Shown here: positions 782 through 28,992 of the stretch, piece by piece
Numbering within the stretch: the stretch's first letter is position 1
Layout: every line of letters starts with the position of its first letter
Virus record (IMG/VR): IMGVR_UViG_3300038520_001354
Location: 1 to 64,000 of that record
Direction: 5' to 3' (one strand)
Source: a virus
Lineage: Duplodnaviria > Caudoviricetes
Length of the DNA stretch: 64,000 nt
Program-made: the position numbers and the translations under genes
The notes under the pieces: generated by a model
Seen by the model: the letters and a program-made list of their open reading frames with translations, nothing else
Told to the model about the DNA's origin: nothing
Databases searched by the model: none

Positions 782-810
782 AAAAAAATTCCGCCAAATT
801 TTTTGAGAAA
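782..810 (+). repeat. 29-bp direct repeat, copy 2
   Basis: aaaaaaattccgccaaattttttgagaaa. Confidence 0.85.
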
Positions 811-849
811 TTTTACTTCATTATGGACAAATAATAGGAATTGGTTATT

Positions 850-1065: not shown

Positions 1066-1070
1066 TTAAT

Positions 1071-1220: not shown

Positions 1221-1221
1221 T

Positions 1222-1329
1222 ATGACAAGATGCAATTTACTTGATACTTGGTTTGACGCTAAATCTAAAGAATTAGATAAGGCAGAAAAAGAAAAGAAAA
1301 GAGATTTAATTACAGGTGAAAAGAAATGA
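1222..1329 (+). CDS. 35-aa protein (not in ORF track)
   Basis: MTRCNLLDTWFDAKSKELDKAEKEKKRDLITGEKK; ATGA overlap with next gene. Confidence 0.6.
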   Translation: MTRCNLLDTWFDAKSKELDKAEKEKKRDLITGEKK

Positions 1330-1553
1330 CTTGGCAAGATATATTGAAAGAACAAATAAAACACTATAAGGAATTGCCAAAAAATATGCCTGATGCAACG
1401 AAATATGATTTTGCCGTTGATAAAGGAGAAGAAAAATCAAGATTGGCTTTTGCTAAAGAAATGCTTGAAGAAAAATTTAGTAATAAAACTCATAAGATAA
1501 TAAGTTATAATGACGATTTTGGACAAATGTTTTACAGGATTATTAAGAGATAG
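1326..1553 (+). CDS. Hypothetical protein with WxxILK leader
   Basis: Starts MTWQDILKE; first 24 nt identical to gene at 418; GGTGA SD. Confidence 0.85.
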   Translation: MTWQDILKEQIKHYKELPKNMPDATKYDFAVDKGEEKSRLAFAKEMLEEKFSNKTHKIISYNDDFGQMFYRIIKR

Positions 1554-1564
1554 GGTGAGAAGAA

Positions 1565-2659: not shown

Positions 2660-2667
2660 GTGATTAA

Positions 2668-2844
2668 ATGAGTTGGCGAGATATAGTTAAACAATGGGAT
2701 GAACGGGAAATAATGAGCCGTGTCCAAAGAACAGGCTATTGTCGCAGGTGTCAACAAATGGTAACTAAATATCAAGAATGTAATTTGAAATTACCTGCAC
2801 CTTCAAGTGGAGTTAAACCTAATTGCCCAATGAGGGAGGAATGA
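2668..2844 (+). CDS. 58-aa Cys-rich (possible Zn-binding) protein with leader (not in ORF track)
   Basis: MSWRDIVKQ...CRRC...C...CP; AGGTGA SD. Confidence 0.75.
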   Translation: MSWRDIVKQWDEREIMSRVQRTGYCRRCQQMVTKYQECNLKLPAPSSGVKPNCPMREE

Positions 2845-2846
2845 AT

Positions 2847-3704
2847 ATGTCTTGGCAAAAAATCCTAAAAGTCGAAGATATAGACTTTGATGGTGCTATT
2901 GAGGGTTTTGGGCATTATTCTATGGCTGTTAGTCATCCTACTCCTGAAAGAATGGCAGAATTATTATTCTTTGGAAGTCAAACAGGTAAAGCCCCTGCTC
3001 TAAAGGATTTCATAGAAGAAGAAATTAGAATTAATCATAAGAATGCTTATCAGTATCTCAAACAAAGAAATGAGCGAGAACCCACTGAAAAAGAAATAAC
3101 TGAGTTTATTATTAGAACTATTATGCACGAAGCGACTCATGCTGCTATGGGCTTTGAACAACAAGCAATGGCTGACCATCAAAGAGAATATGGCGCATTT
3201 ACAGGACAATTCCCTAATGAAACTTATTATAGATTAAAATCGTTCGTAATGCACCCTGCAACAGAACCAAGACTATTGCATCCCATGTTAGAACAATTAC
3301 TTGAAATTCAAGGAACTATCAAGATAGATGCAGTTGACAAGGTAAAAGATATTATTGGATTTGTTGATGCTTTAACTAGTGATTTAGATGCGCCTTCATC
3401 AAAAATAGAAGAATTTAAAGAAAAATTTGCTAGATTAGAAATACAAGCAAGAGGTCAAGGAAAATCTTTAATTAGAGACATTGATAAAAGAAAGGTAGGT
3501 TATGACTTTTTCATTGATAGATACGGTGAAGAAAATAAAGATTTCATAATGGATTATGTAAGTGTTTTAATGGGTCGTAAAATGACGGCAGAAGATTTTG
3601 AAAGAGCCGAAAAAATGGCTGGAACAGTTACTACTACATCAGCCCCCGCTATGTTTAATAAGGTAGTTAGGGGTCGAAAAAAGAAGAAGAAGAGGGATGA
3701 GTGA
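2847..3704 (+). CDS. Putative zincin metallopeptidase with WxxILK leader
   Basis: MSWQKILKV start after GGAGG; HEATH (HExxH) with downstream E (REYGAF); basic C-tail. Confidence 0.7.
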   Translation: MSWQKILKVEDIDFDGAIEGFGHYSMAVSHPTPERMAELLFFGSQTGKAPALKDFIEEEIRINHKNAYQYLKQRNEREPTEKEITEFIIRTIMHEATHAAMGFEQQAMADHQREYGAFTGQFPNETYYRLKSFVMHPATEPRLLHPMLEQLLEIQGTIKIDAVDKVKDIIGFVDALTSDLDAPSSKIEEFKEKFARLEIQARGQGKSLIRDIDKRKVGYDFFIDRYGEENKDFIMDYVSVLMGRKMTAEDFERAEKMAGTVTTTSAPAMFNKVVRGRKKKKKRDE

Positions 3705-4843
3705 TGGTAAAAGAGAAAAAGAACTTCAATCCACATAAAGGCAATAAAGTCAATCAAGGCGGAGGAAAGTTTCCTTTCGTTGATGAGTTTAATACTTGGA
3801 GGAAAAACTGCCAAAGTATTTCCGGTGGAGATTTGCAACTAAAGTATGTTGATAATTTGTATGTTTTCTTGAGAAATCATATGCAAGGAAATATACGAAC
3901 AGGAAGCCGTAACGAAGGATTAGACGGAGAAGGTGCTATTCAGTTCCTTTCGGTTATTGAGGATTTTATTGACAACAATTTATTTACTGTTGCTCAAGCC
4001 AAACTTATTGAAGGAATGGCAAAAAGATTAGAACAAATGAAAGATACAGGTAAAGATGCCGGAGGAAAAACTCCTGCTTTTGACCCTGCTTTTATTCTAT
4101 TTACTGAAACTGATTATAGCGGAACAGGAGAAAAACTCCGTGAAAGAAAGGTTCAAGGACATTATGCGACAGAATGGTATGTTAAGAATAATCCTGATAA
4201 GGGAGTTAGTAAAGTTCCCGATGATTGGATGGCTGGAAATAATCCTCCCCATCAAGCATTATTTTCAGAATCTTCAACAAAGTTTGCAAAACCAAGAGGA
4301 CTATTGTATATTATGCAAGATGCTGCAAAAGAATTAGATGAAGTTGAAATAGATGTTGTTATTGATAATCTTCCACAAGGCGTGGATGCAGTTGATATTG
4401 ACGAAATAAAATCTGTTGAGCAATTCTTCAATGCTGCAATTAAGAATCAATCTTTTTGGACTAATGGTGGTAAATTAAGAACACAGAAACTTAGAAAAGA
4501 ATTAGAAGCAACTGAGTTCAAGGTTAAACCTAATGAACAAGCCCCTACAAGAGAAATCACAAATCTTGGAAAAGTTGATGAAAGAGATGCAATTGCAGGA
4601 AGAATTGTTAGTTTCAGATTAACTGCAACTGCTACTCCTATTATTGAATTAGTTGACAGAGCATTGAAGAGAGCAAATACTAATAAAGCACCTAATGGTT
4701 ATAGAGCATGGCAAGGAGATACAAAGCGTGGATTCGATTACAGAAAAACCGCAAGAGAAAAATTCGGTGAAGATACAGGAAGATATAATCCTAATCAAAA
4801 GGTATTATCTAAAATGTGGCAAATGAATCTTTGGAGGCGATAA
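3704..4843 (+). CDS. Hypothetical protein
   Basis: 379 aa; ends SKMWQMNLWRR (leader-like). Confidence 0.8.
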   Translation: MVKEKKNFNPHKGNKVNQGGGKFPFVDEFNTWRKNCQSISGGDLQLKYVDNLYVFLRNHMQGNIRTGSRNEGLDGEGAIQFLSVIEDFIDNNLFTVAQAKLIEGMAKRLEQMKDTGKDAGGKTPAFDPAFILFTETDYSGTGEKLRERKVQGHYATEWYVKNNPDKGVSKVPDDWMAGNNPPHQALFSESSTKFAKPRGLLYIMQDAAKELDEVEIDVVIDNLPQGVDAVDIDEIKSVEQFFNAAIKNQSFWTNGGKLRTQKLRKELEATEFKVKPNEQAPTREITNLGKVDERDAIAGRIVSFRLTATATPIIELVDRALKRANTNKAPNGYRAWQGDTKRGFDYRKTAREKFGEDTGRYNPNQKVLSKMWQMNLWRR

Positions 4844-4844
4844 T

Positions 4845-5159
4845 ATGTTATGGAAAAAGATATTAAAAATAGATATGGAAGAAGCCCGAAGATTAGGTGA
4901 TAGATATGCACCTGAAGATATGGAACAAGGCAGACAAGATAGAATGTCAACAATTATAACAGAAAGAGTTCCCGCCATTAGAATGACTCTTGAAAGGTAT
5001 ATAGATACTAATGACCCTGATAAAATATTAAATTTTAGAGAGGCTATTATTTCTTTAATAAGAGATTTACCTAATCCTCCGAGATTATCAAGAAGAACTG
5101 ATTATGAAGGTAAAATGAAAAATTATCATCTTGTTGATGGGTATTTAGATTCGTTGTGA
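4845..5159 (+). CDS. Hypothetical protein with WxxILK leader
   Basis: MLWKKILKI; GGAGG SD. Confidence 0.8.
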   Translation: MLWKKILKIDMEEARRLGDRYAPEDMEQGRQDRMSTIITERVPAIRMTLERYIDTNDPDKILNFREAIISLIRDLPNPPRLSRRTDYEGKMKNYHLVDGYLDSL

Positions 5160-5163
5160 TATT

Positions 5164-5829
5164 ATGACTGTTAATCGTAAAAGGTGTGGTTTGTGTCAAG
5201 CCCCGAATAGAGAAGAGTTAGAGGCTTCTCTTGAAATGGGAAGTGTTACTTGTGATGAGTTAGATACAATTCACAATTGGCGAAGTGGAACTACTGCACA
5301 ACATCAAAGAAATCATATGGGAGAATACAAAATGTCATCAAATCCTAAGTGTGTTCTATGCACAGACCCTATGAGAAAACATTACGAACAAGCGTTAAAA
5401 GAAGGTAATATATCAAGTGAGGCTGTTTCTTCTGCCCTAAACACCACAAAATCACAGGTGCAAAGACACATGAAGCACCACTTGACACCAATCGTGCAAG
5501 AATCCGCAGCCGCTATCATAGCGAAAAAGGAAGTAAATGAAGTTGAATTGCTATCAAACAATGTTGCTAAGTTAGATACTCGTTTAGAACAAGTTTTCAA
5601 CAATTTGGGGAATGATTTAGACCCTAAGATGATTGATGCCTTAACTAAGTTAGCAAGAGAGATTAGAGAATCTTTAAAATATCTTATGGAATTTAAAGGC
5701 AAATTGGTTCACAAGAGACAAGATACAATTATTGTCGCACAAATGCAAATTGTTCAAGAAGTGCTTGCACAGAACAATCCTGAGATTTGGTTGGATATTA
5801 AGAAAAGAATGCAGGAGAAGTTACAATGA
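5164..5829 (+). CDS. Tandem Zn-finger/HTH protein with coiled coil (candidate terminase small subunit)
   Basis: Two CxxC...HxxxH units (CGLC..HQRNH; CVLC..HMKHH) then a helical region; TerS role is inference. Confidence 0.5.
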   Translation: MTVNRKRCGLCQAPNREELEASLEMGSVTCDELDTIHNWRSGTTAQHQRNHMGEYKMSSNPKCVLCTDPMRKHYEQALKEGNISSEAVSSALNTTKSQVQRHMKHHLTPIVQESAAAIIAKKEVNEVELLSNNVAKLDTRLEQVFNNLGNDLDPKMIDALTKLAREIRESLKYLMEFKGKLVHKRQDTIIVAQMQIVQEVLAQNNPEIWLDIKKRMQEKLQ

Positions 5830-6302
5830 CTTGGTTTTCGGTAATTAAAAAACCGAGAGTTGTAGGAGAAAAATACGGAATTAAAATAGACGAATATTTT
5901 TCTGATTCTATGAAAGAAAGTTACTATGATAATGATGTATATTTGAAAGACGAAATATGGGCACAAATATCTAATTACCCTTCTGATATGAAAATTATAG
6001 AAATGAATCTTGATAAAGGACAAAGCATAGATAAAGCCATTGAAGATGTAGTTAGAAAATATAGAGACTTAATTGATAAAGCAGATAATGAAATGTGGGA
6101 TGATGAAATCATTGAAGAAAAATTAGGCAGAAAACTAACTCCACAAGATTATGAAAGAACGAAAAGTTTTGAAGATGAAATAATAACTAATGTCGCAATA
6201 AGTCGGCTAATTATGAATAATGATAGAGCAAGAGAACTAATGGTGTATTCTATGAGACTAAGATTATTTTTAGATGAATTGATAAGGAGGCAAGAGGAAT
6301 GA
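5826..6302 (+). CDS. Hypothetical protein with leader
   Basis: MTWFSVIKK. Confidence 0.8.
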   Translation: MTWFSVIKKPRVVGEKYGIKIDEYFSDSMKESYYDNDVYLKDEIWAQISNYPSDMKIIEMNLDKGQSIDKAIEDVVRKYRDLIDKADNEMWDDEIIEEKLGRKLTPQDYERTKSFEDEIITNVAISRLIMNNDRARELMVYSMRLRLFLDELIRRQEE

Positions 6303-6481
6303 AATGGGAAGATACAATGAAAAGATACCCTCTTAGAGAAAATCGTGGCGAAAGCAGTTTTTATACTAAGAGAAAATTAAGAGCATTATTAGATTTATTA
6401 AACAGTGATATGGAACCTACTTCTAAAGTAGCACAAGCACAAGGTTTTATTGAAAGTATGTTAAAGCAGATGAGTGAGTAA
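6299..6481 (+). CDS. Small protein with variant leader
   Basis: MKWEDTMKR. Confidence 0.75.
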   Translation: MKWEDTMKRYPLRENRGESSFYTKRKLRALLDLLNSDMEPTSKVAQAQGFIESMLKQMSE

Positions 6482-6482
6482 T

Positions 6483-6752
6483 ATGTCTTGGCATGATATA
6501 ATTAAACTAAGGCAAGATTCTTGGAATGCCTTAACTCAAGTAATCATAGGAGAGTATGATTATGAGTTATGGAAAGATACTCCTATTCCTGAAGAACTAA
6601 AAGAAATGAAAAAGGAATACGATAAACAACCCGAAGATATTCAAAATACAATTAGGAATATGTTACAAGAGGGTAGTTTAGTAAATGATGAAATGAGAAT
6701 GGGAATATTTTCAATTATCATGGGTATTTTAAACAATGCTGGGTTCAAGTGA
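6483..6752 (+). CDS. Hypothetical protein with leader
   Basis: MSWHDIIKL. Confidence 0.8.
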   Translation: MSWHDIIKLRQDSWNALTQVIIGEYDYELWKDTPIPEELKEMKKEYDKQPEDIQNTIRNMLQEGSLVNDEMRMGIFSIIMGILNNAGFK

Positions 6753-6756
6753 TAAT

Positions 6757-8991
6757 ATGTCTTGGTTTGAGCAACTTAAAATGGTTCCTAGAGATAAGTT
6801 TTCTTTAGGTTATGTCATTGTAAATGCTGCTGAAACAGAAAAAGCCGTCAATGAAATAAAAAATCTTACAAAACCACCGCAAGCACTCAAAAGTTTGTTG
6901 CTTTCTATTGAAAATAATCAATTGAGTTTGGAAGAACTAAAGGAAACTTTTGGACAACCGCCTCATGGCGACCAAACTTTAGAGCAAATGAGAGAAAATG
7001 TTCAAAAAATCAAAAATGCTTCAAAATTATTGACTCTTTCAGAAGTCCGAGAGTTAATAAAAGAAGCCCTTGAAGCAAAAAGAAACACAAATCCTCAAAA
7101 AGTTAAGGAAATTTTGCAAAATTTAGACGAAAATGCTGATTTAAGCAAGAGAACCTTACAAAGACACCGTGATATTAGAGATTCTTTGGATATTTTACGA
7201 ATGTCTAACGATAAATCTGTAATAATGTTTGAAAATCCTCCATCAGATAAGAAAATTTTAGAAGAATTTGCAAAATTATTAGATGGAGAGGTTGTTGGAG
7301 ACACAATCGCTGTTAATTTTAAGTCTCAATCTGAATTTATTGCAGCGATGGTTCCTAAAAAAGAAGATTCTGATGCAATTAAAGAAAAAAAGTCAGAAAT
7401 TAAAGAAATGTATAACAAACATTTTAGAAAATCCGGCTGGTCACTAAGCATTGGACAAAAAACTGTGGATTTGAACAATTTAGTCGCTCAAAAGAAGATT
7501 TTTGTTGCTTCGGGTCAAAAATTAGAAGTCGTTGAGCCATTTACAGGTGCTTCTGTATTAAAATATATTAGAGCCGTTGATAAAGTAACAGGAAGTGTAA
7601 GAGCCTTTAGACCAAAAAGACTTCCTAATGGTTCAACTGTTCCTAAAGTTTTATTTTTGGATAAAGCCAGCCCTAATTCTATGAATTTAAATCCTTATGC
7701 TAAGTTAATTCTAACTAGTGACTTTTCTGGTGATGAATGGTTTAAGACTTTCTTTGATGTATTAAGAACTAACCAAATGTTAAGTGAAAAGGATGCAGAA
7801 CAATTAATTATTCAAGAAATCTATGAAACTTTGATGGGAAATGAAAATACTACTCCAAGTGGATTAAGTGTTTCCACTTTTAGAGGTGCTGATGGAATAC
7901 AGGATTTAGAAACTAAAACTCCTAAAAAGGTTAGAGCAGAAATTAGAAGTATTATTGACGAAAGTGCCCGACTAGAAGATACTATTATTAATGCTGGATT
8001 ACAACTACAACAAGAACAATTACAATACCTTGAAGGTAATTTTACTCTCAAAGAGGCGGCTGATTTTAAGAAATTTTACGAATCATTAGACCGAGAAGAT
8101 TTTCCTTTAGAAGATTTAGAAATAGAATACTTCAAAGATGGCCGCCCTACAAAATATGAATCAGATAAAGTTGATGAAGAAGGAAATCAAGTTAGAGATG
8201 AAAGTGGTGCAATAGTTACACAAACATTATCTGGTATTGAAAGGGCTAACTATGCTACTATTAAAATAGAAGGCGAAACACTTTCTCCTGAAGATGCTTA
8301 CGAGTTCGGTCTTAAAGTTACTTCTCCTGAGTTTACAGAAGAATCCACTAAAAGAACAGAAAAAACCATAGATACTATGAATGCTTCTTTAAATGCTGCT
8401 AAGACTAGATTGGCGAAAGTTCCTAAAGATAAAGCGGATTTACGAGAAAGATTACAAACTAAGATTTCTAATTTAGAAGAGAGAATAAAGAACGCTAAAA
8501 GTAAAATTACTGAAGGTAAAGATAAAACTGATATTGGTCAGCAAACTGCTAAGTTAAGAAATGAACTTTTAAACATGGATGATTTTTCACAATATCTTAT
8601 AGCAACAAGTAATAAACTTAAAGGCGAAGGAGGTCTAATTGGTTTGGTTTCTAAGATAGAAAGGTCTGCTTCTGCATTAGAGCAAATTACTCCCGAAAGG
8701 AGTTTAGGGTTCTTCGCACAGTTGGATGAACATGCAGGTAATAACGATGTGAGGGAAGCGTTTAAGGTCATAGACGACAAGCCGGAATCAGACGAGGCGA
8801 AAGACGCTGCTAAAGAGTTAAATGATAAAATGCCAAACATTCTTTCTAATGCGAAAGAACAACTAATTGGTGCATTTAAATTACATTTAGAAAAGTTTGC
8901 TAAGAATCCTGCATCATTCCCCGACAATCAAGTTATTTCTGCTAAAAAACAATTTGTCGATAAACAGAATCTATTAACATTAGGTGAGTAA
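6757..8991 (+). CDS. Large helical/coiled-coil protein with leader (candidate internal head or ejection protein)
   Basis: MSWFEQLKM; 744 aa; no recognisable catalytic motif. Confidence 0.75.
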   Translation: MSWFEQLKMVPRDKFSLGYVIVNAAETEKAVNEIKNLTKPPQALKSLLLSIENNQLSLEELKETFGQPPHGDQTLEQMRENVQKIKNASKLLTLSEVRELIKEALEAKRNTNPQKVKEILQNLDENADLSKRTLQRHRDIRDSLDILRMSNDKSVIMFENPPSDKKILEEFAKLLDGEVVGDTIAVNFKSQSEFIAAMVPKKEDSDAIKEKKSEIKEMYNKHFRKSGWSLSIGQKTVDLNNLVAQKKIFVASGQKLEVVEPFTGASVLKYIRAVDKVTGSVRAFRPKRLPNGSTVPKVLFLDKASPNSMNLNPYAKLILTSDFSGDEWFKTFFDVLRTNQMLSEKDAEQLIIQEIYETLMGNENTTPSGLSVSTFRGADGIQDLETKTPKKVRAEIRSIIDESARLEDTIINAGLQLQQEQLQYLEGNFTLKEAADFKKFYESLDREDFPLEDLEIEYFKDGRPTKYESDKVDEEGNQVRDESGAIVTQTLSGIERANYATIKIEGETLSPEDAYEFGLKVTSPEFTEESTKRTEKTIDTMNASLNAAKTRLAKVPKDKADLRERLQTKISNLEERIKNAKSKITEGKDKTDIGQQTAKLRNELLNMDDFSQYLIATSNKLKGEGGLIGLVSKIERSASALEQITPERSLGFFAQLDEHAGNNDVREAFKVIDDKPESDEAKDAAKELNDKMPNILSNAKEQLIGAFKLHLEKFAKNPASFPDNQVISAKKQFVDKQNLLTLGE

Positions 8992-8992
8992 A

Positions 8993-11455
8993 ATGGTTGA
9001 GTTAACAGAAGAACAAATAGGAATGCTTAACCTATCTCCAGAAAAAATTAATGATTTGGCTACTGCTAATCCTCTTCAACGAAAAAGCACCACTAATAAA
9101 ATTATTAGAACTTTAGAAGATAAGTTAAGAGATAAAGCAAGAGGCTCTTCTAATCAAAAAGAAGAACTTAAAAAGATTCCTGACATAATATCTGCTGCAA
9201 AAAAGTATATTAAAGACCAAATAAAAACAGGCGGAAGAGTTGCGAGAGATACCCAAGCCGCATTTGATACCTTTTTGCGACCTTTAACAGATATGAATTT
9301 GTATGTTGATGGCAATAAAATTAATGAAAGTTATTTATATAATCAATCAATTACAGGTAAAATTCAGATTAGAAATCCTAAGCCTGAAAATATGAAAGAT
9401 AAACAGGTCATGGCAGCATACGAAGCAGAAGCAACGCCACAAGCATTTAAGGATAATTATGATAAAATTCAACAAACTTTATCTGATATGATGAATGTTA
9501 GTGAATATAAGAAGGTAAGCGATATACCTATAAATAAGTTCTTAGGTGCAATTGATGTATCTAAAGCAACTAATAGAATAGAAGTCTATAATTATTGGGC
9601 AGAGATAGGAAATAAATATAATGAATTTGCTGATGCCTTAACTGATTTCTTTGTAGCAGTTGAAAAAATTAATTGGGAACCAGAAGTTAAAAAGGATTTT
9701 GATAAACTATATAGAGATGTAGCAACTGTTAATTTAGAATATATTGCTATCTTTGAAAATATTCCGAAGAATTTTGAATCAGCCCACCTTAGATTTTTTA
9801 ATTTAATTGCCGGAAGATTAGCAACAGAAAGATTACTTTCTATGGAAGATGAAGGAGTATCTTACGCTGATGACCCTGTTGAATATGCTGATGTTAATTC
9901 AGCATTAGCAGAAGAATTACAGTCAGAAGTAGCAGCATCTAGCAGCACACAAGGAGATACAATTGACCCCCGACAATGGGAAGAAATGCTTGATACTCAA
10001 GTTTCTTGGGATGAAACAATAATAGAAATTTTAGGTAATGCCGACCCTTTGTTAATTTATGAATATAACAAAGGTGATAAGTTATTAGGTATTAATGACG
10101 AAATGGAGGCGGCTCTTTTAGATGTTCTTCAAAATATTGAAGAAGAATTAGATGAAGGTCAAGGAGTTACTTTAGATACTAGAACTAACATTGAAGAATG
10201 GTTAGAACAATTAGAAGATACTAACATTCTTGAAGAAGGTGATGTGGATATAATGGCGTTACCTATTTCTGTTATGATGAATAAAGACTTTGCTGATATG
10301 TATGGAGGAAAAGATAATAAATTCACTTCAGTTGATGAAAAAGAAGATATAAGTTCTGATAATTTAGATGCTATTAAAAACTTCTTTAATGACTTATATC
10401 TTTTACTTATTAGTGAACCATTTAGAATGGAAGTCGAAGCAAGAAGCACTAAAGGAAGAAGAAGGGGTAGTGTTCAAGAGTTTAGAGAAGCAGCAGGGAC
10501 TTCTATGGAAGGATTAACAGGTGGTGCAAAAATTCCTATCTCTATGAATCAAGCAGGAGAATTAAGGGGAGAATTACAGCCATTTAAAGAAGAATTACAA
10601 AAGATGATGGATTTGGCAATTCAATATTATTTTGACCCTATTTACAGTGGCCGCCTACCAATTGAAATCCCTAACTTTGCGTCAAGTATTGGTTCAAAGG
10701 TTATGCAGGTATTAAGTTTAGATTTGGGATTAGAAACTGTAATGTCTGCTTCTTACGATACTCTTATGGAAGGTTCAGTCGAAGAAATTGATTCTGGAGA
10801 TATGAGAGCAATTGCTGATTTCTTAGAAAATATCTTTATGCCCGAAATAAAAATAGATGCTGATATTATTACTCAAGGTGAATTTGCTGCTGATGCACTA
10901 ACCGAAATATTTGGCCGTGAAGAAGCAAATAATGATTATGCTGCTGCTTTGATTTTTCACTTTATGGTTGAAACAGATGATTTAAGTCGTGGTAATAATG
11001 ATTTTAATGGACAAACTATTGCTGAAAGAGCAGAAAGATTTGAAGAAGATTTTAGAAATAGAAGGGCATTTCCTATATTCGCATTACCACATTGGTTAGA
11101 CCAAAATCAAGGTATTCTAACTAAAAAGAGTAGTGCTTCTAAAACACAATACAATAGATTAAAGGCTATCTTTGAGAATGCTCAAACTGATTTACCTGTT
11201 CTATTACATAAACTTTTGAAAGCCCATGATGCAGTTAGAAAGGAATTAGGTCTTGAAGTAGTATATGGGTTTGTTCCTCTTAATGAATACGGTATTGATA
11301 AAATGATTACTAAGATGCAGATTGATGAGAATATTGATTTAAGTTATCTTGAAGTTGAACAAATAGTAAAAGCAGTTGATTCTCACGATAGTATATCAAA
11401 AGAATATGGTATTAGTAAAGAACAAGTATATTTAATTAAAGCAAACTTTAGGTGA
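8993..11455 (+). CDS. Large acidic protein
   Basis: 820 aa, very D/E-rich; C-terminal LLKA, IVKA, LIKA motifs. Confidence 0.8.
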   Translation: MVELTEEQIGMLNLSPEKINDLATANPLQRKSTTNKIIRTLEDKLRDKARGSSNQKEELKKIPDIISAAKKYIKDQIKTGGRVARDTQAAFDTFLRPLTDMNLYVDGNKINESYLYNQSITGKIQIRNPKPENMKDKQVMAAYEAEATPQAFKDNYDKIQQTLSDMMNVSEYKKVSDIPINKFLGAIDVSKATNRIEVYNYWAEIGNKYNEFADALTDFFVAVEKINWEPEVKKDFDKLYRDVATVNLEYIAIFENIPKNFESAHLRFFNLIAGRLATERLLSMEDEGVSYADDPVEYADVNSALAEELQSEVAASSSTQGDTIDPRQWEEMLDTQVSWDETIIEILGNADPLLIYEYNKGDKLLGINDEMEAALLDVLQNIEEELDEGQGVTLDTRTNIEEWLEQLEDTNILEEGDVDIMALPISVMMNKDFADMYGGKDNKFTSVDEKEDISSDNLDAIKNFFNDLYLLLISEPFRMEVEARSTKGRRRGSVQEFREAAGTSMEGLTGGAKIPISMNQAGELRGELQPFKEELQKMMDLAIQYYFDPIYSGRLPIEIPNFASSIGSKVMQVLSLDLGLETVMSASYDTLMEGSVEEIDSGDMRAIADFLENIFMPEIKIDADIITQGEFAADALTEIFGREEANNDYAAALIFHFMVETDDLSRGNNDFNGQTIAERAERFEEDFRNRRAFPIFALPHWLDQNQGILTKKSSASKTQYNRLKAIFENAQTDLPVLLHKLLKAHDAVRKELGLEVVYGFVPLNEYGIDKMITKMQIDENIDLSYLEVEQIVKAVDSHDSISKEYGISKEQVYLIKANFR

Positions 11456-11459
11456 TAAT

Positions 11460-11579
11460 ATGAAGTGGTGGAATTTTCTTAAAAAATTAACAAAGACCTG
11501 TCCTGTTTGTGGAACAGAAAACGAAAAGGATGCTAAAAAGTGTAAAAACTGTGGTGCAGATATTTCTGATGTGAAGTGA
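11460..11579 (+). CDS. 39-aa zinc-ribbon protein with leader (not in ORF track)
   Basis: MKWWNFLKKLTKTCPVCGTENEKDAKKCKNCGADISDVK; AGGTGA SD. Confidence 0.8.
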   Translation: MKWWNFLKKLTKTCPVCGTENEKDAKKCKNCGADISDVK

Positions 11580-11583
11580 TATT

Positions 11584-11787
11584 ATGAAGTGGGAAGAAGT
11601 ATTAAAGAAGAAAAAGAAATCAACCGTCAATCAATCAGGTAACTATACAAAACCCGGATTGCGTAAAAGAATTTTTAATAGAATCAAAGCGGGAACAAAA
11701 GGTGGTGCAGCCGGTCAATGGTCTGCAAGAAAAGCACAAATGTTAGCGCAAGCGTATAAAAAGGCTGGTGGTGGCTATAAAAATTAA
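11584..11787 (+). CDS. Basic protein with leader; DUF5872-like N-terminal half
   Basis: MKWEEVLKK; YTKPGLRKRI..GGAAGQWSARKAQMLAQAYKKAGGGY, family recognised from memory. Confidence 0.75.
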   Translation: MKWEEVLKKKKKSTVNQSGNYTKPGLRKRIFNRIKAGTKGGAAGQWSARKAQMLAQAYKKAGGGYKN

Positions 11788-12052
11788 TTGGCGTGATATT
11801 CTCAAAGGTAAATCTAAAAGGCAACAAGATTTAACCCAATGGACAAATGAAGATTGGGGAAGTGCTGAACAACATAGAGCCAAAGATAAAGGTAAAAAGC
11901 CCAAGTCTAAAACTAAAGGAAGATATATGCCAAGAGCAACTTACAAAAGAACAGATAAAAAGACACTAAGATACCAAGACGCAAAGAAAAGAAAAGGTCG
12001 AAAAGCAGGAAAACAGCATGTTCCAACAGGAAAGAAATTTAGTCAGAAGTGA
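11783..12052 (+). CDS. Basic protein with leader; probable ATT start (GTG at 11768/11771 possible); resembles C-terminal half of DUF5872 proteins
   Basis: (I)NWRDILKG; QQDLTQWTNEDW..GRYMP..GKQHVP. Confidence 0.7.
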   Translation: MNWRDILKGKSKRQQDLTQWTNEDWGSAEQHRAKDKGKKPKSKTKGRYMPRATYKRTDKKTLRYQDAKKRKGRKAGKQHVPTGKKFSQK

Positions 12053-12056
12053 TACT

Positions 12057-12473
12057 ATGAATTGGAAAGATATTTTAAAAGCAGAAGAAAAAGCCCATTG
12101 TGGCTCAGAAAAAGCCGATGATGAGAAAGAAGAGTTTGAAAAGAAACTTATTGGTAATCAAAAGAGAATTGATGCTAATAAGGATGGTAAAATTACCGGA
12201 GAAGATTTCAAATTATTAAATAAAGGTAAAGATTCCACATTAACTGAAAAAACGAGGAAAGAACTAGAAAAGGCTACGCAAATGGTTCTTCGTGAAATTG
12301 AAAAAGAAGGCGGTGCTTTGGGTATGAAAAACCTAGATAAAATCTTTAGAGATAAACCTGAATTAGCAAAGAAGGTATTAACTAAACTAAAGAAAGAAGG
12401 TAAAATCTTTGTTCACCAAGATGGAGATATTTATACTCACAAACCAAGTCGAGGGAGAGGATTTACCGCATGA
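12057..12473 (+). CDS. Leader-tagged protein with EF-hand-like loop and C-terminal wHTH-like part
   Basis: MNWKDILKA; DANKDGKITGED loop. Confidence 0.75.
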   Translation: MNWKDILKAEEKAHCGSEKADDEKEEFEKKLIGNQKRIDANKDGKITGEDFKLLNKGKDSTLTEKTRKELEKATQMVLREIEKEGGALGMKNLDKIFRDKPELAKKVLTKLKKEGKIFVHQDGDIYTHKPSRGRGFTA

Positions 12474-12811
12474 GTTGGAAAAATCTCCTAAAAGCAGACC
12501 CCAAAAAAGGAACAGGTAAAAAACCTAAAGGTTCTGCAAGGAGATTATATACAGACGAAAACCCAAAAGATACTGTTTCTGTTAGTTTTAAAACTCCAAA
12601 AGATGTAAGAGATACATTTTCAAGTTCAGCGTTTAAAGGTAAATCACATAAAAGACAATCACAAATTATTAACTTAGTTGAACAAAGAGCAAGAGTAGCG
12701 GCTAAAAGAGCAAAAGACCCAAAAGCAAAAAAGAGATTAAATGCTGCACATAAAGTCGCTTTAGCAAGAAAAGAATCAAGTAAAAGAAAAACACAGAGGA
12801 TGAAAAAATGA
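12470..12811 (+). CDS. Highly basic protein with leader
   Basis: MSWKNLLKA; K/R-rich. Confidence 0.8.
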   Translation: MSWKNLLKADPKKGTGKKPKGSARRLYTDENPKDTVSVSFKTPKDVRDTFSSSAFKGKSHKRQSQIINLVEQRARVAAKRAKDPKAKKRLNAAHKVALARKESSKRKTQRMKK

Positions 12812-13209
12812 GTTGGGAAATAATTTTAAAACAATTGGCTTGTCCTATGGCAACACAAGATTTGATGCTTAATACTAAAAATAGAGATGCCGCAGTTAAA
12901 AACCCTAACATTAGATATGGCCCACTTAATCTAGAAGATGAAGAATATTGGGAAGAATATGGTAAGAGATGGAATACTACTGCGGAAGTAGCAAAAAAAT
13001 CTAATTGTAGTAATTGTGTAGCATTTGACATTTCTCCTAGAATGGAGGATTGTATGCCTTTAGAATTAGATGATGATGGCAGATTAGGATATTGTTGGAT
13101 GCACGATTTCAAATGCCATTCTGCAAGAACCTGTTATACATGGGCTAAAGGCGGCCCGATTACTGATGATAAGAGGTCAAAAGAAAATCAAATGAGGAAG
13201 GAAAAATGA
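12808..13209 (+). CDS. Cys-rich metal-binding protein with leader
   Basis: MSWEIILKQ; CSNC, GYCWMH, KCHSARTC. Confidence 0.8.
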   Translation: MSWEIILKQLACPMATQDLMLNTKNRDAAVKNPNIRYGPLNLEDEEYWEEYGKRWNTTAEVAKKSNCSNCVAFDISPRMEDCMPLELDDDGRLGYCWMHDFKCHSARTCYTWAKGGPITDDKRSKENQMRKEK

Positions 13210-13496
13210 CTGAATGGCAAGAAATTTTGAAAAAGAAAAAGAAGCCATTCAAAGGCTACAATAAAAAAATTCACGCAAGAACGGGAGGATTAAGTGCTAA
13301 AGGTCGTGCTAAGTTTAAGCGTGAACAAGGTTCTAATCTAAAACCTCCCGTTACTACTAAACCTAGTAAATTGAAACCCGGAAGTAAAGCGGCTAAAAGG
13401 CGTAAATCTTTCTGTGCAAGGTCAAGAGGGTTTAAGCGTGATGATGGCACTTATAGTGAAAAAGCGAAAGCAGCAAGAAGAAGGTGGAATTGTTGA
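13206..13496 (+). CDS. Highly basic protein with leader (DUF6321-like, from memory)
   Basis: MTEWQEILKK; GGLSAKGRA..NLKPPV..RRKSFCAR..RRWNC. Confidence 0.7.
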   Translation: MTEWQEILKKKKKPFKGYNKKIHARTGGLSAKGRAKFKREQGSNLKPPVTTKPSKLKPGSKAAKRRKSFCARSRGFKRDDGTYSEKAKAARRRWNC

Positions 13497-13837
13497 TGAA
13501 TTGGAAAAAAGTATTGAAGTTTGATAGAGCAAAAAAACTGCCTTATGAGGAAGAACAGGCTCACATGCTAAGTCGGAGAGAAAAAAGAAGAAAAATGGGA
13601 TTACCGCCAACTAGACGGGATAGAATTTTGGGAACGGCAGGAACTCCAAGAAGTGAAAGGGTTCATAGAATGAAACCCGAAGATAGGCCAAAACCAAGAA
13701 AAAAAGACCCTTTTGATGAATTACCTGAACCAAAAACAGAACAGGAAAAAGCAATAAGAATGCTAATGTCACCTCATTCAAGAAGAAAGCCACCTAAAAT
13801 GGGAGATAGAGGCCGACAGGGATTTAGAGGTCATTGA
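13496..13837 (+). CDS. Basic low-complexity protein with leader
   Basis: MNWKKVLKF. Confidence 0.75.
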   Translation: MNWKKVLKFDRAKKLPYEEEQAHMLSRREKRRKMGLPPTRRDRILGTAGTPRSERVHRMKPEDRPKPRKKDPFDELPEPKTEQEKAIRMLMSPHSRRKPPKMGDRGRQGFRGH

Positions 13838-13838
13838 T

Positions 13839-14132
13839 ATGAATTGGAAAAATATTCTAAAGGCGCAAAGAAGCCTAATTGATTTTGGTCTTGAACCTAA
13901 AAGCACTAATCTTGCAGGAATGCAAAGAGATGAGGCTATGACTCAAGAAATCGCTCAAATGCGAAATAAACTACAACAGAATGTAGGAAGGATGAAAACA
14001 CAAATTAATCAAAAGACTGTTGACTTGGCTACTCATCGTTTAAATCAACTAAAAGAAATAGAATCAATGAGTTTTCCAGAAAATGTTGAAGCGTTTAAGA
14101 AATTCAAACAAGAATATTCAGTTAATTTCTGA
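13839..14132 (+). CDS. Leader-tagged protein with PIP-box-like motif
   Basis: MNWKNILKA-QRSLIDF. Confidence 0.8.
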   Translation: MNWKNILKAQRSLIDFGLEPKSTNLAGMQRDEAMTQEIAQMRNKLQQNVGRMKTQINQKTVDLATHRLNQLKEIESMSFPENVEAFKKFKQEYSVNF

Positions 14133-14141
14133 GGGATAATT

Positions 14142-14711
14142 ATGCCTAAAGTCTTGTCTGCCATATATTCATATGAAGATATGAAAGAAAAATGGTCGCA
14201 AGATAATCCTAATGATGCCCCTTATACTCGTAGGCCGGATTTAGAATCTGGTATTTATGAATTAGATAAATGGATTATTCGTGTAAATGATGAAGGAAAA
14301 ACAATTTCCACTGTTGGTTGGAAAGAACATCCTTCACATACAGTAGTAGGAGGAATGCTTGCTACCACTGAAGGGAAGAAAATAGGTCAAAATAATCGTG
14401 TATTAAACGATGCAAGAGAACCACAGTTAAACCAATCAAAACCTTTAGTTGCTGCTTTTGGATTTAGAGATGGAGATAATGCCCGTTGGATTGCTAAAGC
14501 AAAACAAAACGGTTGGAAATTTCCAGATGATTCTGAATTTGAACAAATGAAACAATTACTTCCTGAATCAGTTTTTAATGAATGGAATAGTGCATATCCT
14601 AATGGCAATTGGGCTATTCGTTCTATTCGTGGTGAAGGAGAAATGGCTAAATGTGTTTATCTTGACGACCCTATTCCCGATTGGTTTAATATGTTAAAAA
14701 GGAGGAATTAA
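14142..14711 (+). CDS. Possible GNAT-fold protein with C-terminal leader-like motif
   Basis: Pattern GKTISTVG..VVGGM..GKKIG..QNGW; ends DWFNMLKRRN. Confidence 0.45.
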   Translation: MPKVLSAIYSYEDMKEKWSQDNPNDAPYTRRPDLESGIYELDKWIIRVNDEGKTISTVGWKEHPSHTVVGGMLATTEGKKIGQNNRVLNDAREPQLNQSKPLVAAFGFRDGDNARWIAKAKQNGWKFPDDSEFEQMKQLLPESVFNEWNSAYPNGNWAIRSIRGEGEMAKCVYLDDPIPDWFNMLKRRN

Positions 14712-14712
14712 C

Positions 14713-15300
14713 ATTAAATCTTGGAAAAAAATTCTAAAGGTTTTGCCTCCTGAAGATTGGGATGATTACGGAGGATATACTGAAGTTGACGGAACTCATG
14801 TTCAATTTCCTCCTAAAAGAAAAGATTATGGAACTATTGCTGCAATAGTTAGAGGACATTATCAAGATAGAATAATTAATAACACCAATAATCATGGAAC
14901 TACTTCTCGAAATACAGATGAAATAGAAGGTTGGGTTCGATGTGTCATTAATTATCCAAGAGGAAAATATTTCTTTTATAGAAACGATAACCCTAATAGT
15001 TACTCTATTATTTTAGTTGATATTATTGTTCAAGGAGATAAATTACCTAATACTAAAGATAAAGTTTTAAATCAAAGTATTAAAAATGCAGATGGAGAAG
15101 TTATCACAAAGATGATTATATTTACAAACTATTTTAACAATAGAAGAGGTATAATACCACAAAGAAGATTTATTCCGTGTAATGGACAAAATTCATTAAA
15201 AAGATTAAATATGCCTAAACCCAAAAAAGAAAGAGAACCAACTAATATATTTTCTGTGAAACCTAATCTAAGAGGTTCAGCACGAAGGAGTCGAAGATAA
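14713..15300 (+). CDS. Hypothetical protein with leader; probable ATT start
   Basis: In-frame (I)KSWKKILKV upstream of the track's TTG at 14743; GGAGG at 14701; in-frame TAA at 14695. Confidence 0.7.
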   Translation: MKSWKKILKVLPPEDWDDYGGYTEVDGTHVQFPPKRKDYGTIAAIVRGHYQDRIINNTNNHGTTSRNTDEIEGWVRCVINYPRGKYFFYRNDNPNSYSIILVDIIVQGDKLPNTKDKVLNQSIKNADGEVITKMIIFTNYFNNRRGIIPQRRFIPCNGQNSLKRLNMPKPKKEREPTNIFSVKPNLRGSARRSRR

Positions 15301-22268: not shown

Positions 22269-22630
22269 CTTGGGATTTCTATGGAGATGGAGAAGATTTT
22301 GTTTTAAAAGAAAAGAAAGAAAAACCAAAAGAAATACTAGATTCAATGGATAGCAAAGCGAGAAAGAGACTTAAAAAAACTCTTCAAGCGGCTGAACCTA
22401 CTGAATTTTTTGGTCAAGATTTTACTAAATTAGGTGAATTAATTACTGTTCTTAGAGAATTAGATTTAACTAAGTCAGACAAGAAGTTAAACAAGAAAAT
22501 GAAATCAATGGATGAGCGCAACATTGATATTGTGGCTACGGCTACGAAGTTGCGTAAAGAATACGAATTACTTTACAGGCAATTACGAGATTTAGTTTAT
22601 CCTAAAGGAAAAGGGAGAGATAAGAGATGA
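22265..22630 (+). CDS. Hypothetical protein
   Basis: ATGA overlaps on both sides; starts MTWDF. Confidence 0.75.
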   Translation: MTWDFYGDGEDFVLKEKKEKPKEILDSMDSKARKRLKKTLQAAEPTEFFGQDFTKLGELITVLRELDLTKSDKKLNKKMKSMDERNIDIVATATKLRKEYELLYRQLRDLVYPKGKGRDKR

Positions 22631-22875
22631 CAGAAGAGAACACAATAAATGAAGATATTTTAGCGATTATAAAGGCTTTAACTGAAAAAGTTGAAAGTTT
22701 AGAAAAGATGATGTATTCAAAAGATAATCTATTGATGAAAGCAGGATTAGTTGTATCAAACAGCCCTATTCCTGCTATGGATAATTCTATTGGCGGTGTT
22801 AGTTCATTACCAACAACAGATGTTTCAAGCATGGATTGGTCAGATATTCATAAAATGGTATCAGATATGGAGTGA
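22627..22875 (+). CDS. Mini-scaffold-like protein sharing the scaffold C-terminal motif
   Basis: N-terminal coiled coil; C-terminal MDWSDIHKMV matches scaffold MEWSDIHKMV. Confidence 0.7.
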   Translation: MTEENTINEDILAIIKALTEKVESLEKMMYSKDNLLMKAGLVVSNSPIPAMDNSIGGVSSLPTTDVSSMDWSDIHKMVSDME

Positions 22876-26411: not shown

Positions 26412-27641
26412 ATGACTTCTGCTGTATTACACAATAATACTCACGATTTCAGGATTCTAAAAAGCGATGATTTAATGATTGGAGGATATGCAAGCATTGA
26501 AATCGTTGATAAACAAAATGATTTAATCACACTTAAAGCACTTAACGAGGCAGTTAAAAAATATATGGAGAACCCTAAGTTTAGAAATGTAATGACAAAT
26601 CATTCAAATGTTCAAGTTGGGGAAGTAGTTGAATCATATAGAGATAAAACAGGGAGATTGTGGAAAACAGAAGTTGATGATGTTGGATTCTTTGTTGTTA
26701 TTAAGTTAAGAGATGATATAGAAAAAGCCAAAGAAATTAATAGAGGCATTAGAAAAGGTTCATTGAGGTCATTTAGTATTGGAGGACAGGCTTTAGAAAA
26801 AGTAAAGAAAAACCATCAAGAATTAGGCGACTACAATGAAATAAGCAAGTTAGAATTGCATGAAGTAACAATCTGTGAAAAAGGAATTAATCCCGAAGCA
26901 AGGTTTGATATTTTAAAACAAGACAAAAAAGAGGTGAAAAATTTGACCAAAATAGAAAAGGCTCTTGAAGAATTGGATGCTCTTATGGCAGAAGTCAATA
27001 CTTTGAGAAAAGAAGAAGAAGAAGAAAAAGAAGAATACATGGACATGGACAAAGAAAAAGGAATGCCTATGGACATGGATAAAGAGAAAGAAGATATGAT
27101 GGATGAAAAAGCCATGTATGATGAAAAGATGATGGATGAAAAAGGTATGTATAAGGATGATGAAGCCAAAGCCTATGTTCCAACCCTTGACGGCGCAGGT
27201 GTCGAAATTGGCGAACCTGCTGATAGGATTGTTATTGAAGGCGGTAGGCCAAAACCTTCCGATTTACCCGTTGTTAAAGCATTTAACAATGAAGAGTTAG
27301 AAACTCTTGATTTATCCGTTTCTAACATTGAAAAGGCTTATGATGCTTTCCGTCAAGAACAACTTGAAAAGTTGGCATATGACAATCTTCAAAAGCAGTT
27401 TGAAGCCCGTTTTGCTGCTGAAACTGCAACTAGAACCGATGCAATCGCAAAGGCTAACTACGATGCTCAAAGTGAAATTGCTTCTCTAAAGAATGAATTT
27501 GCATCTTTGAGAAAGTCTCTAACTGCTGAAAAGGAAACAATCCTAAAGGCTCAAGAAGAGGCTGAAATTAAACTCCCTTCAATGGATGAATTGGCTGAAA
27601 TGGAATGGTCAGACATTCACAAAATGGTAGGAGGTTATTAA
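26412..27641 (+). CDS. HK97-type prohead protease fused to scaffold
   Basis: GYAS..D..ND, NH, SFSIGG (catalytic Ser), HEVTIC..NPEA; acidic coiled-coil C-terminal half; directly upstream of MCP. Confidence 0.92.
   Translation: MTSAVLHNNTHDFRILKSDDLMIGGYASIEIVDKQNDLITLKALNEAVKKYMENPKFRNVMTNHSNVQVGEVVESYRDKTGRLWKTEVDDVGFFVVIKLRDDIEKAKEINRGIRKGSLRSFSIGGQALEKVKKNHQELGDYNEISKLELHEVTICEKGINPEARFDILKQDKKEVKNLTKIEKALEELDALMAEVNTLRKEEEEEKEEYMDMDKEKGMPMDMDKEKEDMMDEKAMYDEKMMDEKGMYKDDEAKAYVPTLDGAGVEIGEPADRIVIEGGRPKPSDLPVVKAFNNEELETLDLSVSNIEKAYDAFRQEQLEKLAYDNLQKQFEARFAAETATRTDAIAKANYDAQSEIASLKNEFASLRKSLTAEKETILKAQEEAEIKLPSMDELAEMEWSDIHKMVGGY
27038..27171 (+). repeat. Short tandem peptide repeats in scaffold linker
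   Basis: MDMDKEKG/MDMDKEKE/MMDEKA/MYDEK/MMDEKG. Confidence 0.75.
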
Positions 27642-27642: not shown

Positions 27643-28992
27643 ATGGCTGGATATATTAACACAATTGCAGACTTAGAGGCACAGACATACGGAACAGGCG
27701 CAACAGGCCATATTAGCAATCAATTGCTAAAGGCTGCTGGAACAATTAGCGGTATTCATACTGCACACGATGGTTCATTCAGCGCACCAAGCGGAATTAA
27801 CGCAAATCTTTACAATAAGATTTACGGACAAAAAGTTTGGTCTATGCTAAATAGAGAATGTAATGCACTATCTGTTATTTCAAAGAGGCCATATTCTTCA
27901 AGTGGTTGGAGAATCCTAGCAAAGAGAGCAGGTGGTGGTTCTGGAAACTTCTTGGATATTTCTGCTGCTTCTAACACTACTTTGAATGATGCACTATATG
28001 GTGCTGATTCACTTAGAGCAGACCGAATTGGTGGTGTTGTTGAAAATGCAGCATTAGATTCTAATACAGATGGATTGGTTTCTATTGCACCAGAATATGA
28101 CACACTATTCACAAGCCCAAAGATTATTGCACATCAATTCTCTTTCAGTGAACTTTCAATGGAAATGGCTGCAATTGATGATGGAATTGGCGATATTAGA
28201 GCGCAATTGCGTGAAGATATGGGTAAGCACCACGCTGAAGCACAGAACAGTATGCTTGTAATGCCATTGGAGTTCTATTCTCCAACAACTGCATATAATA
28301 CAGCAAATGCTATTGATAGAGGATATACTTCTCTATACAAGATTGTTTCTTCTAAGGCTGAAATTGATGAATTGGCTGACAATTCTGGTGGAAACCTTGT
28401 TGATTCTGCTACTGACCAACAAATTGACCATCTTTATGGAAAACAAAGAAGCGATTCTATTGGTTATTTGGATGCAGAAGTTTCTTTCGGTGCAGGATAT
28501 ACTTCCGCAGAAGCACGACAATTGACTCTAACTGTTATTAATGACATGATTAGAAGACTTCGTGTTGCTGGTGGTTCACCAAAGGTTATTCTAACAGGAT
28601 ATGATACACTTCAAGTGCTTTCAGACCTATTGCAAGCACAAGAACGCTTTATGGATAGAAAGGAAATTGTTCCTACTGTTAATGGAGTTAGAGGTGTAAA
28701 GGGTGCTGAAGTAGGATTTAGAGTATCAACTTATTACGATATTCCACTAATTCCTGTTGCTGCTATGCCTTCAACCGGAAACAACTCAAGCGGAATTACT
28801 GACATGCTTTTCCTTGATACAGACCATTTGTGGCTATCTGTTATGAAACCAACTCAATACTTTGAAGATGGTATCAGCAACGGAAACCCATTCGGTGTCG
28901 GAACACTTGGAAACAAGGCACTTTACCGAACAATGGGTGAAATGGGTTGTTCTTACTTTAAGGGTCAAGGCAAAATTACCAACATACTGTGA
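27643..28992 (+). CDS. Major capsid protein (HK97 fold)
   Basis: 449 aa after protease; C-terminal YYDIPLI..MLFLD..QGKITNI pattern. Confidence 0.9.
   Translation: MAGYINTIADLEAQTYGTGATGHISNQLLKAAGTISGIHTAHDGSFSAPSGINANLYNKIYGQKVWSMLNRECNALSVISKRPYSSSGWRILAKRAGGGSGNFLDISAASNTTLNDALYGADSLRADRIGGVVENAALDSNTDGLVSIAPEYDTLFTSPKIIAHQFSFSELSMEMAAIDDGIGDIRAQLREDMGKHHAEAQNSMLVMPLEFYSPTTAYNTANAIDRGYTSLYKIVSSKAEIDELADNSGGNLVDSATDQQIDHLYGKQRSDSIGYLDAEVSFGAGYTSAEARQLTLTVINDMIRRLRVAGGSPKVILTGYDTLQVLSDLLQAQERFMDRKEIVPTVNGVRGVKGAEVGFRVSTYYDIPLIPVAAMPSTGNNSSGITDMLFLDTDHLWLSVMKPTQYFEDGISNGNPFGVGTLGNKALYRTMGEMGCSYFKGQGKITNIL

Follow-up and report, generated by a model that had tools for sequence, protein, structure and literature searches.

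A conserved terminal helix of a magrovirus protease-scaffold, its second carrier, and its partial likeness to an N-terminal leader on unrelated proteins

The DNA analysed here (the window) is a stretch of 64,000 nucleotides, the first 64 kb of an IMG/VR record of 94,643 bases that is rated 100% complete. Judged by gene content and size, the source is an uncultured magrovirus, one of the viruses of marine group II (Poseidoniales) archaea (PMC5434244). We base this assignment on two magrovirus hallmarks inside the structural module, an ATP-dependent DNA ligase gene (23438-26368) and a homing-endonuclease-like gene, and on the ~95-kb genome, all of which fit the published description (PMC5434244). 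The features on which the analysis bears are as follows.

418..15300, + strand: leader array, ~20 genes whose products open M-x-W-x-x-[IV]-[LI]-K (motif scan)
15300-16730: large terminase gene, upstream of the protease-scaffold gene
18776-20413: portal gene, upstream of the protease-scaffold gene
22627..22875, + strand: ORF for an 82-aa helper protein, the second carrier of the W-tail, with tail MDWSDIHKMV at 22831-22860
26412..27641, + strand: prohead protease (S78) fused to scaffold (Pfam PF04586, PHROG, AlphaFold2 model)
27540..27551, + strand: I377-L378-K379/A380, candidate maturation cleavage site 20 residues upstream of the putative anchor Trp (conservation)
27600..27629, + strand: MEWSDIHKMV, residues 397-406 of the protease-scaffold, core of the putative C-terminal anchor helix (sequence, conservation, model)
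27643..28992, + strand: major capsid protein, HK97 fold, SU10_MCP, phrog_24667 (Pfam and PHROG matches)
27724-27735, + strand: L-L-K30/A, ending the conserved N-terminus of the capsid protein (conservation)

The 409-aa product of the ORF at 26412-27641 carries an S78 prohead protease domain (PF04586, residues 21-176, E 4e-10) and matches the PHROG head maturation protease with an E value of 1e-15. H64 and S122 are invariant among 36 protease sequences; they lie in the contexts N-H-S and F-S-I-G, for which the counterparts in HK97 gp4 are N-H-K and M-S-V-G. The capsid protein gene begins 2 bases past the stop codon of the protease-scaffold gene. The protein has what is expected of an S78 protease-scaffold, namely the family domain with its His and Ser, a gene placed directly 5′ of the capsid gene, and a helical C-terminal extension. 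A blastn search of the protease-capsid region against isolated phages gave no match.

The extension was examined in an AlphaFold2 model of the protease-scaffold built from 36 relatives (mean pLDDT 65). After the protease domain the model places a helix at 180-210, followed by a disordered, acidic, Met-rich linker (211-300) and then a helical hairpin made of helices 303-349 and 352-383. A Pro-containing break (384-390) and a short helix (391-395) lead to an end helix at 399-407, modelled with pLDDT ~60-70. The codons at 27600-27629 on the + strand (ATG GAA TGG TCA GAC ATT CAC AAA ATG GTA) encode MEWSDIHKMV, which sits 3 residues from the end of the ORF, where the protein terminates in MVGGY. 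The earlier note had placed this peptide near the end of a protease/scaffold protein, and its sequence and position are borne out. Since the model forms an end helix at 399-407, MEWSDIHKMV forms the last helix of the scaffold domain to which the protease is fused.

Searching 1.84 billion representative proteins brought up 1212 relatives. In 80 close relatives (75–97% identity) the tail reads M-[DE]-W-[SAN]-[DE]-I-H-K-M-[VAM] while its flanks vary, a pattern that holds in both of the tail's carriers, and many full-length relatives terminate in [KN]-M-[SD]-W-x-[DE]-[IV]-[HN]-x-[LMI]-[AV]. In the 36-sequence alignment A3, which extends down to 39% identity, W399 is the sole invariant residue among the last 40. 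The conserved tail is ~18 residues long and, as expected of a scaffold anchor, conservation is higher in the short helix at the very C-terminal end than on either side of it. We conclude that the tail is a genuine, ancient and functionally constrained terminal helix. Haloarchaeal viruses searched by tblastn matched the protease domain only, at ~31% identity. No cultured virus with a virion proteome could be linked to the tail in this way: the HVTV-1 protease tail lacks M-x-W-x-[DE]-I. The C-terminal end of the HK97 gp4 protease carries an encapsidation signal, according to the passage of PMC7411985 that cites Duda, Oh and Hendrix 2013. Although gp4 is likewise an S78 protease, the relation of the two tails is one of analogy only: the gp4 tail has neither the Trp motif nor a scaffold domain, and the scaffold of HK97 is the delta domain of its capsid protein.

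The same tail is found on a second protein. The 82-aa ORF at 22627-22875 terminates in MDWSDIHKMVSDME, and its 10-codon core is identical to that of the scaffold at 27 of 30 bases, with two synonymous differences, while the flanks are unrelated. The helper is modelled on the same plan as the scaffold: an N-terminal helix spans 2-29, a short helix covers a conserved L-L-M-K-A-G, and past a disordered linker comes the end helix (71-81). A helper with a W-tail accompanies the protease-scaffold in all clades examined, and the paired tails vary jointly by clade (HKMV/HKMV, H[NS]IV/N[QN]II, NELV/DELV and HQLA/HEMA). Tails from one genome are alike at an average of 4.82 of 8 variable positions, compared with 3.92 for shuffled partners, and none of 2000 shuffles reached 4.82; this comparison is inflated by shared ancestry and is descriptive only. 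Recent gene conversion as the sole cause of the identical tails was rejected, because the flanks show no relation and paired tails are found in every clade, with sequences that have diverged. Two proteins bearing one co-varying terminal peptide point to a single common docking partner, and the tail is most likely, as judged from these sequences, a procapsid anchor of two head-assembly proteins.

A similar arrangement has been described in a bacteriophage and its satellite. The 80alpha scaffolding protein (SP) and CpmB of satellite SaPI1 share a C-terminal helix-and-hook (RIIK) and both bind the capsid protein at one site, next to its N-arm helix (PMC5644958). There, as here, two proteins have near-identical C-terminal peptides (~16 residues in 80alpha) formed of an amphipathic helix and a short end, and a long scaffold is matched with a small helper (~70–80 aa, dimeric) that has an N-terminal helix and a flexible linker. 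In contrast to 80alpha and SaPI1, both carriers belong to one virus and are kept together across clades, with no satellite piracy. The magrovirus motif also differs (M-x-W-x-[DE]-I-H as opposed to RIIK), the scaffold is fused to the protease, and the system is known from sequence alone.

Conservation also points to candidate cleavage sites in these proteins. In the scaffold, alignment A3 (36 sequences) shows I377 and K379 conserved at 90% or more, and the site reads [IVF]-x-K-[AS] in 19 distant sequences. The helper has a conserved L-[LM]-x-K/A-G before its linker, which is LLMK/AG in this virus. The N-terminal 30 residues of the capsid protein are strongly conserved, with K30 invariant and L29 at least 90% conserved (36 sequences). 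In HK97, the type member of the protease family, the capsid protein is cut after F-N-K/S, and the candidate sites here likewise fall after Lys. An I-L-K near the N-terminus of the protease was also considered as a cleavage site and dropped, since HK97 gp4 has I-V-K there and the residues probably belong to the fold. I-x-K/A and L-L-K/A could themselves be structural features and not cleavage sites. Herpesvirus UL26/UL26.5 is a protease-scaffold whose extreme C-terminus holds the capsid protein, and cleavage at the M-site slightly upstream frees the scaffold. The magrovirus protein has the same layout in kind but no sequence relation to it, and its putative cleavage site is suggested by conservation. 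A nested scaffold gene was not seen here; instead, a separate small gene has the second tail.

The tail might anchor its carriers to a partner other than the capsid protein, for example the portal, or it might fold back on the protease as a self-substrate or inhibitor. The helper gene does lie near the portal gene, and in the window's clade the tail ends I-H-K/M, which fits the candidate cleavage pattern; however, most tails lack the Lys, and the monomer model leaves the tail free, unpacked against the protease domain. The precedents (80alpha, P22 and the herpesviruses) all bind the capsid protein, and we consider either alternative improbable. A complex prediction for the capsid protein (alignment A2) with scaffold residues 350-409 (alignment A3) scored 0.00 against a mark of 0.32; run without controls, it speaks neither way on binding.

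At the left end of the window, a short peptide recurs at the start of many predicted proteins. Leader ORFs begin at 418, 850, 1326, 2668, 2847, 4845, 5826, 6299, 6483, 6757, 11584, 11783, 12057, 12470, 12808, 13206, 13496, 13839 and 14713; those at 418 and 1326 open with MTWQDILK. Two leader ORFs appear to begin at ATT. All of the leader genes are on the + strand, directly upstream of the terminase gene, and a scan of the entire 94.6-kb genome found the motif at no ORF start outside 418-15300. The pattern W-x-x-[ILVMT]-[ILVMH]-K occurs 32 times in six frames, compared with 6.6 in shuffles, and when the prefix [MN]-x is added the counts are 17 observed and 0.5 in shuffles. Across all fetched loci, 242 distinct leaders give the consensus M-[SNT]-W-[QKEF]-[DEN]-I-L-K, in which the Lys is invariant, and the residue that follows is most commonly Ala (54 of 242).

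The leader is always at the extreme N-terminus, and past residue 10 the protein bodies are mutually unrelated (best pairwise E 0.006). Synonymous codons vary at its conserved residues, and Shine-Dalgarno-like sequences of the ordinary kind (GGAGG or GGTGA) lie upstream of the starts. On these grounds a cause at the level of DNA or RNA was rejected, and selection therefore acts on the leader peptide. The tag itself does not change, but the set of tagged proteins turns over, and few bodies are common to two leader-bearing clades. Searches of 20 left-arm proteins against Pfam and PHROG yielded nothing usable, and no leader protein fits a known family, structural families included. For the Cys-rich leader protein (12808), a homologue search gave close magrovirus relatives only, and a leaderless homologue was not found among them. 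Six leader proteins of 67–113 aa are strongly basic, with net charges of +16 to +26. The data support reading the leader as a portable, protein-level tag on unrelated proteins.

The closest parallels for such a tag are found in bacteriophages. The T4 capsid targeting sequence, present on IPI-III and Alt, docks on the core of the prohead, whose protease removes it (PMC7411985), and DarB of P1 has a comparable N-terminal signal (PMC9024508). As in T4, one short N-terminal peptide is carried by otherwise unrelated proteins (~20 ORFs), the gene set is variable, and the putatively packaged cargo includes small basic proteins. Unlike in T4, the peptide has another sequence, the candidate cleavage is at Lys (Glu in T4), ~20 genes are tagged as opposed to a handful, and the host is an archaeon. 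We know of no report that the T4 tag resembles the scaffold's own anchor. Encapsulin cargo-loading peptides are likewise short terminal peptides on diverse cargo that dock inside an HK97-fold shell. Here, however, the motif is unrelated and the tag is N-terminal and probably removed. An encapsulin cargo-loading system would lack portal and terminase genes and have a Gly/Ser/Leu-rich motif; this genome has terminase, portal, protease and tail genes. In its closing I-L-K, which frequently precedes Ala, the leader resembles the candidate sites of the capsid protein, the scaffold and the helper, and one reading fits all four candidate sites: a single Lys-specific maturation protease that would act on each of them.

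We then asked how far the leader resembles the tail. As the earlier note had proposed, M-x-W-x-D-I-x-K fits the leader MTWQDILK and the tail MEWSDIHK alike, and the agreement exceeds chance. A profile built from 72 distinct leaders was scored on all 27,301 8-mers of the genome's longer ORFs, and among the ~27,290 non-leader 8-mers MDWSDIHK of the helper ranks 1st and MEWSDIHK of the scaffold 6th. The core [ML]-x-W-x-[DE]-[IV] is found in this genome in 7 leaders and 2 tails, and at only 2 of ~335 other Trp; a leaderless relative has it at 2 of 487 Trp, precisely those of its two tails. The background rate of the shared core is ~0.5% of Trp positions. Over the first half of the motif, M-[ST]-W-x-[DE]-[IV], the likeness is genuine. 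The second halves differ, being H/N-x-[LM]-[AV] in the tails and L-K in the leaders, and the tail's His or Asn at W+4 never equals the leader's Leu. Some caution applies in weighing this likeness: one matching position is the initiator Met, amphipathic helices commonly have a Trp followed three residues later by a hydrophobic one, and the comparison of two motifs amounts to one event, not twenty.

These figures bear on whether the leader has to do with the capsid at all. It could instead offer an acceptor Lys to a ubiquitin-like system, or serve as a degradation or localisation signal or as a host-takeover signature, its likeness to the tail being due to chance. The invariant Lys and the lack of any match between leader proteins and known structural families are consistent with such a role. 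However, the terminase gene follows the tagged genes directly and on the same strand, and some tagged genes of relatives sit within the head module, adjoining the small tail protein gene. With the tag always at the protein's extreme end and the shared core so rare at background Trp positions, we think a role apart from the capsid quite unlikely.

If the leader were a mimic of the tail, the two might be expected to change together, and the earlier note had looked to such co-variation across related viruses. It is absent. The tail Lys at W+5 is restricted to the window's clade, and the leaders remain W-x-x-I-L-K as the tails change. In the relative L082, the tails are WNEIHAT and WGDINNL and the leaders WKEILK and WKDTLK; L085 and L086 have the tail WNDINAL with leaders WQDIIK and WENILK. 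A large intermediate group has tails WGDIHNLA or WSDIHNIV and unchanged leaders, and in the P0008 clade, where the tail is WEEVNELV, the complete 94-kb IMG/VR relative G005, used for the leader count, has ~21 W-x-x-I-L-K leaders. Taken strictly, then, leaders are kept in viruses whose scaffold tail lacks WxDIxK (WNEIHAT, WNDINAL, WGDIHNL, WEEVNEL), a pattern that the earlier note had named as refuting its proposal.

The P0010 clade provides the opposite case. It keeps both tails, as MSW[DE]EVH[QA]LA and M[ST]Wx[ED]IH[ED]MA, yet leaders are absent from four of its genomes (95–107 kb, 88–100% complete), and gene-by-gene inspection of one complete genome, G004, revealed no alternative shared N-terminal motif. 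Because tails occur without leaders in one clade, and leaders stay constant over varying tails, the tail is older than and independent of the leaders, and the leaders do not track it. For the same reasons the data do not require a common site. The clade pattern would fit a tag that came from the anchor and later became fixed; it would fit equally well if the two had no relation.

Of the proposal that the leader mimics the scaffold helix, then, the common M-[ST]-W-x-[DE]-[IV] and the conserved terminal helix stand, while the Lys match turns out to be clade-specific and the second halves differ. The further step, that leaders mimic the tail and dock at the same site on the capsid protein, is weakened by the comparative data and now seems doubtful. 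The same holds for the version in which leaders imitate the coat-binding helix so closely that cargo and scaffold compete for an identical capsid protein pocket, which we regard as rather unlikely: leader and tail are both terminal peptides with a common core, the two tails show one anchor serving two proteins, and 80alpha SP and CpmB set a precedent for competition at one site (PMC5644958), but, besides the comparative data and the differing second halves, in T4 the reported contact of the targeting sequence is with the scaffold core and not with the shell (PMC7411985).

That T4 precedent (PMC7411985) suggests another possibility, in which the leader serves as a tag for targeting and cleavage whose binding partner is the scaffold core, either the coiled coil of the protease-scaffold or the helper, instead of the capsid protein; the leader would then have come to resemble the tail by convergence. 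The failure of leaders to co-vary with tails is in keeping with this, as is the I-L-K, mostly followed by Ala, that resembles the candidate sites in the scaffold, helper and capsid protein. On the other hand, the leaderless clade has the same scaffold architecture, we found no scaffold feature specific to the leader-bearing clades, and the leader-tail likeness is statistically unusual. Binding of the leader to the scaffold core can be put forward only tentatively.

From the sequences and their conservation, the predicted helices, the co-varying tails, the portability of the leader and its distribution among clades, we infer binding, cleavage and packaging of the tagged proteins, and propose the following course of assembly. 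The amphipathic end helix would tether the protease-scaffold inside the assembling capsid, probably at the conserved N-terminal arm of the capsid protein, and the small coiled-coil helper would be tethered likewise through the same tail. At maturation the protease would cut I-x-K/A, 20 residues upstream of the anchor Trp, freeing the scaffold; the helper would be cut at L-M-K/A-G, and the protease may also trim the capsid protein and free cargo from its tag. The leader would be a separate and younger device, a capsid-targeting tag of the T4 kind in which the last three residues also serve as a Lys-specific cleavage site; a copy of the anchor may have been its origin, and it may occupy the same pocket. 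Taken as a whole, the reading in which the tail is an ancestral procapsid anchor released at I-x-K/A, and the leader a later, T4-like cleavable tag that perhaps uses the same site, is one that we hold to be somewhat probable. A more specific proposal is that an anchor-derived tag with a Lys-specific site loads ~20 fast-evolving proteins, six of them polycationic and resembling DNA-condensing proteins, through the scaffold's docking pocket, and that the protease frees them for delivery to the archaeal host, in two magrovirus clades. This proposal is speculative, and we think it less likely to be right than wrong by a good deal.

The magrovirus literature searched makes no mention of the tail, the leader or the helper protein. 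The parts are new in sequence and familiar in kind: a C-terminal anchor on a protease-scaffold, an anchor shared by two proteins, and a cleavable N-terminal targeting peptide. Magroviruses are among the most abundant archaeal viruses of the surface ocean, and because none has been cultured their assembly is known only through their genomes. A conserved scaffold anchor with an invariant Trp offers a testable handle on how an archaeal HK97-fold capsid is built, and the clade that has tails and no leaders is a natural control. If the leader is a loading tag, these viruses would deliver into their hosts a large and quickly changing set of proteins, probably including counter-defence and DNA-condensing proteins, and the tag would allow foreign proteins to be packed into HK97-fold shells by means of a very short peptide. 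Should the reading of anchor-derived loading prove true, archaeal viruses would have their first described capsid-targeting tag in this leader, and it would form a living link from viral scaffolds to the cargo peptides of encapsulins.

A row of small proteins that open with the N-terminal Trp leader occupies positions 11584–13837 of the window. Of the six leader proteins that are very basic, with a length of 67–113 aa and a net charge of +16 to +26, this row holds five (starts at 11584, 11783, 12470, 13206 and 13496), and these very basic proteins resemble DNA-condensing internal or core proteins. Further upstream, a 285-aa leader protein (2847–3704) contains an H-E-x-x-H motif (MHEATHAAMG). 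On the basis of this motif it could be a metalloprotease that is packaged; it had no matches in Pfam or PHROG.

Two of the leader ORFs lack a start codon of the ATG, GTG or TTG type:

11783–11806, plus strand, leader ORF reading (ATT)-N-W-R-D-I-L-K
14713–14745, plus strand, leader ORF reading (ATT)-K-S-W-K-K-I-L-K

In each, an ATT with GGTGG or AGGAGG upstream sets the Trp at its usual spacing, an arrangement which suggests that both ORFs are initiated at ATT.

Leader-like motifs were also seen away from the N-terminus. The 364-aa ORF at 1565–2659 starts without a leader and carries two such motifs internally, ASWQDSLKK (around residue 238) and EDWQNVVKK (around residue 275); this ORF could have arisen when once separate tagged genes fused, or it could bear internal processing sites. 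The 189-aa ORF at 14142–14711 ends in PDWFNMLKRRN, whose motif ranked 19th among the 27,301 8-mers scored with the leader profile.

The window region 20649–22630, which comprises a 539-aa coiled-coil ORF and the 121-aa ORF behind it, corresponds to a single 755-aa protein in the relative L089 (L089:3967–6234). The 121-aa ORF starts with MTWDFYGD, a look-alike of a decayed leader; its 111-aa counterpart in a second relative, L082, opens with a true leader, MDWKDTLK.

Within the left arm, upstream of the terminase gene, a 221-aa Cys-rich, zinc-ribbon-like protein (5164–5829) has no leader. Among the left-arm proteins it alone has homologues in each of the three clades, and in every homologue P-E-x-W-x-x-I-[KR] lies ∼15 residues before the C-terminus. 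This protein could be a small terminase or a DNA-binding protein with a Trp tail of its own.

Four representative proteins of relatives (P0014, P0017, P0019 and P0038; 209–227 aa) begin, with M..KLEKALEEL, exactly past the protease domain and end in the W-tail, the C-terminal Trp helix of the protease-scaffold. Thus, scaffold and protease seem to be encoded by separate genes in some relatives.

Residues 1–30 of the capsid protein (27643–27735) are unusually conserved, with T7, D10, E12, Y16, G17 and K30 invariant, and are followed by a hypervariable stretch. These residues are a candidate removable mini-propeptide and also a candidate docking arm for the W-tail anchor.
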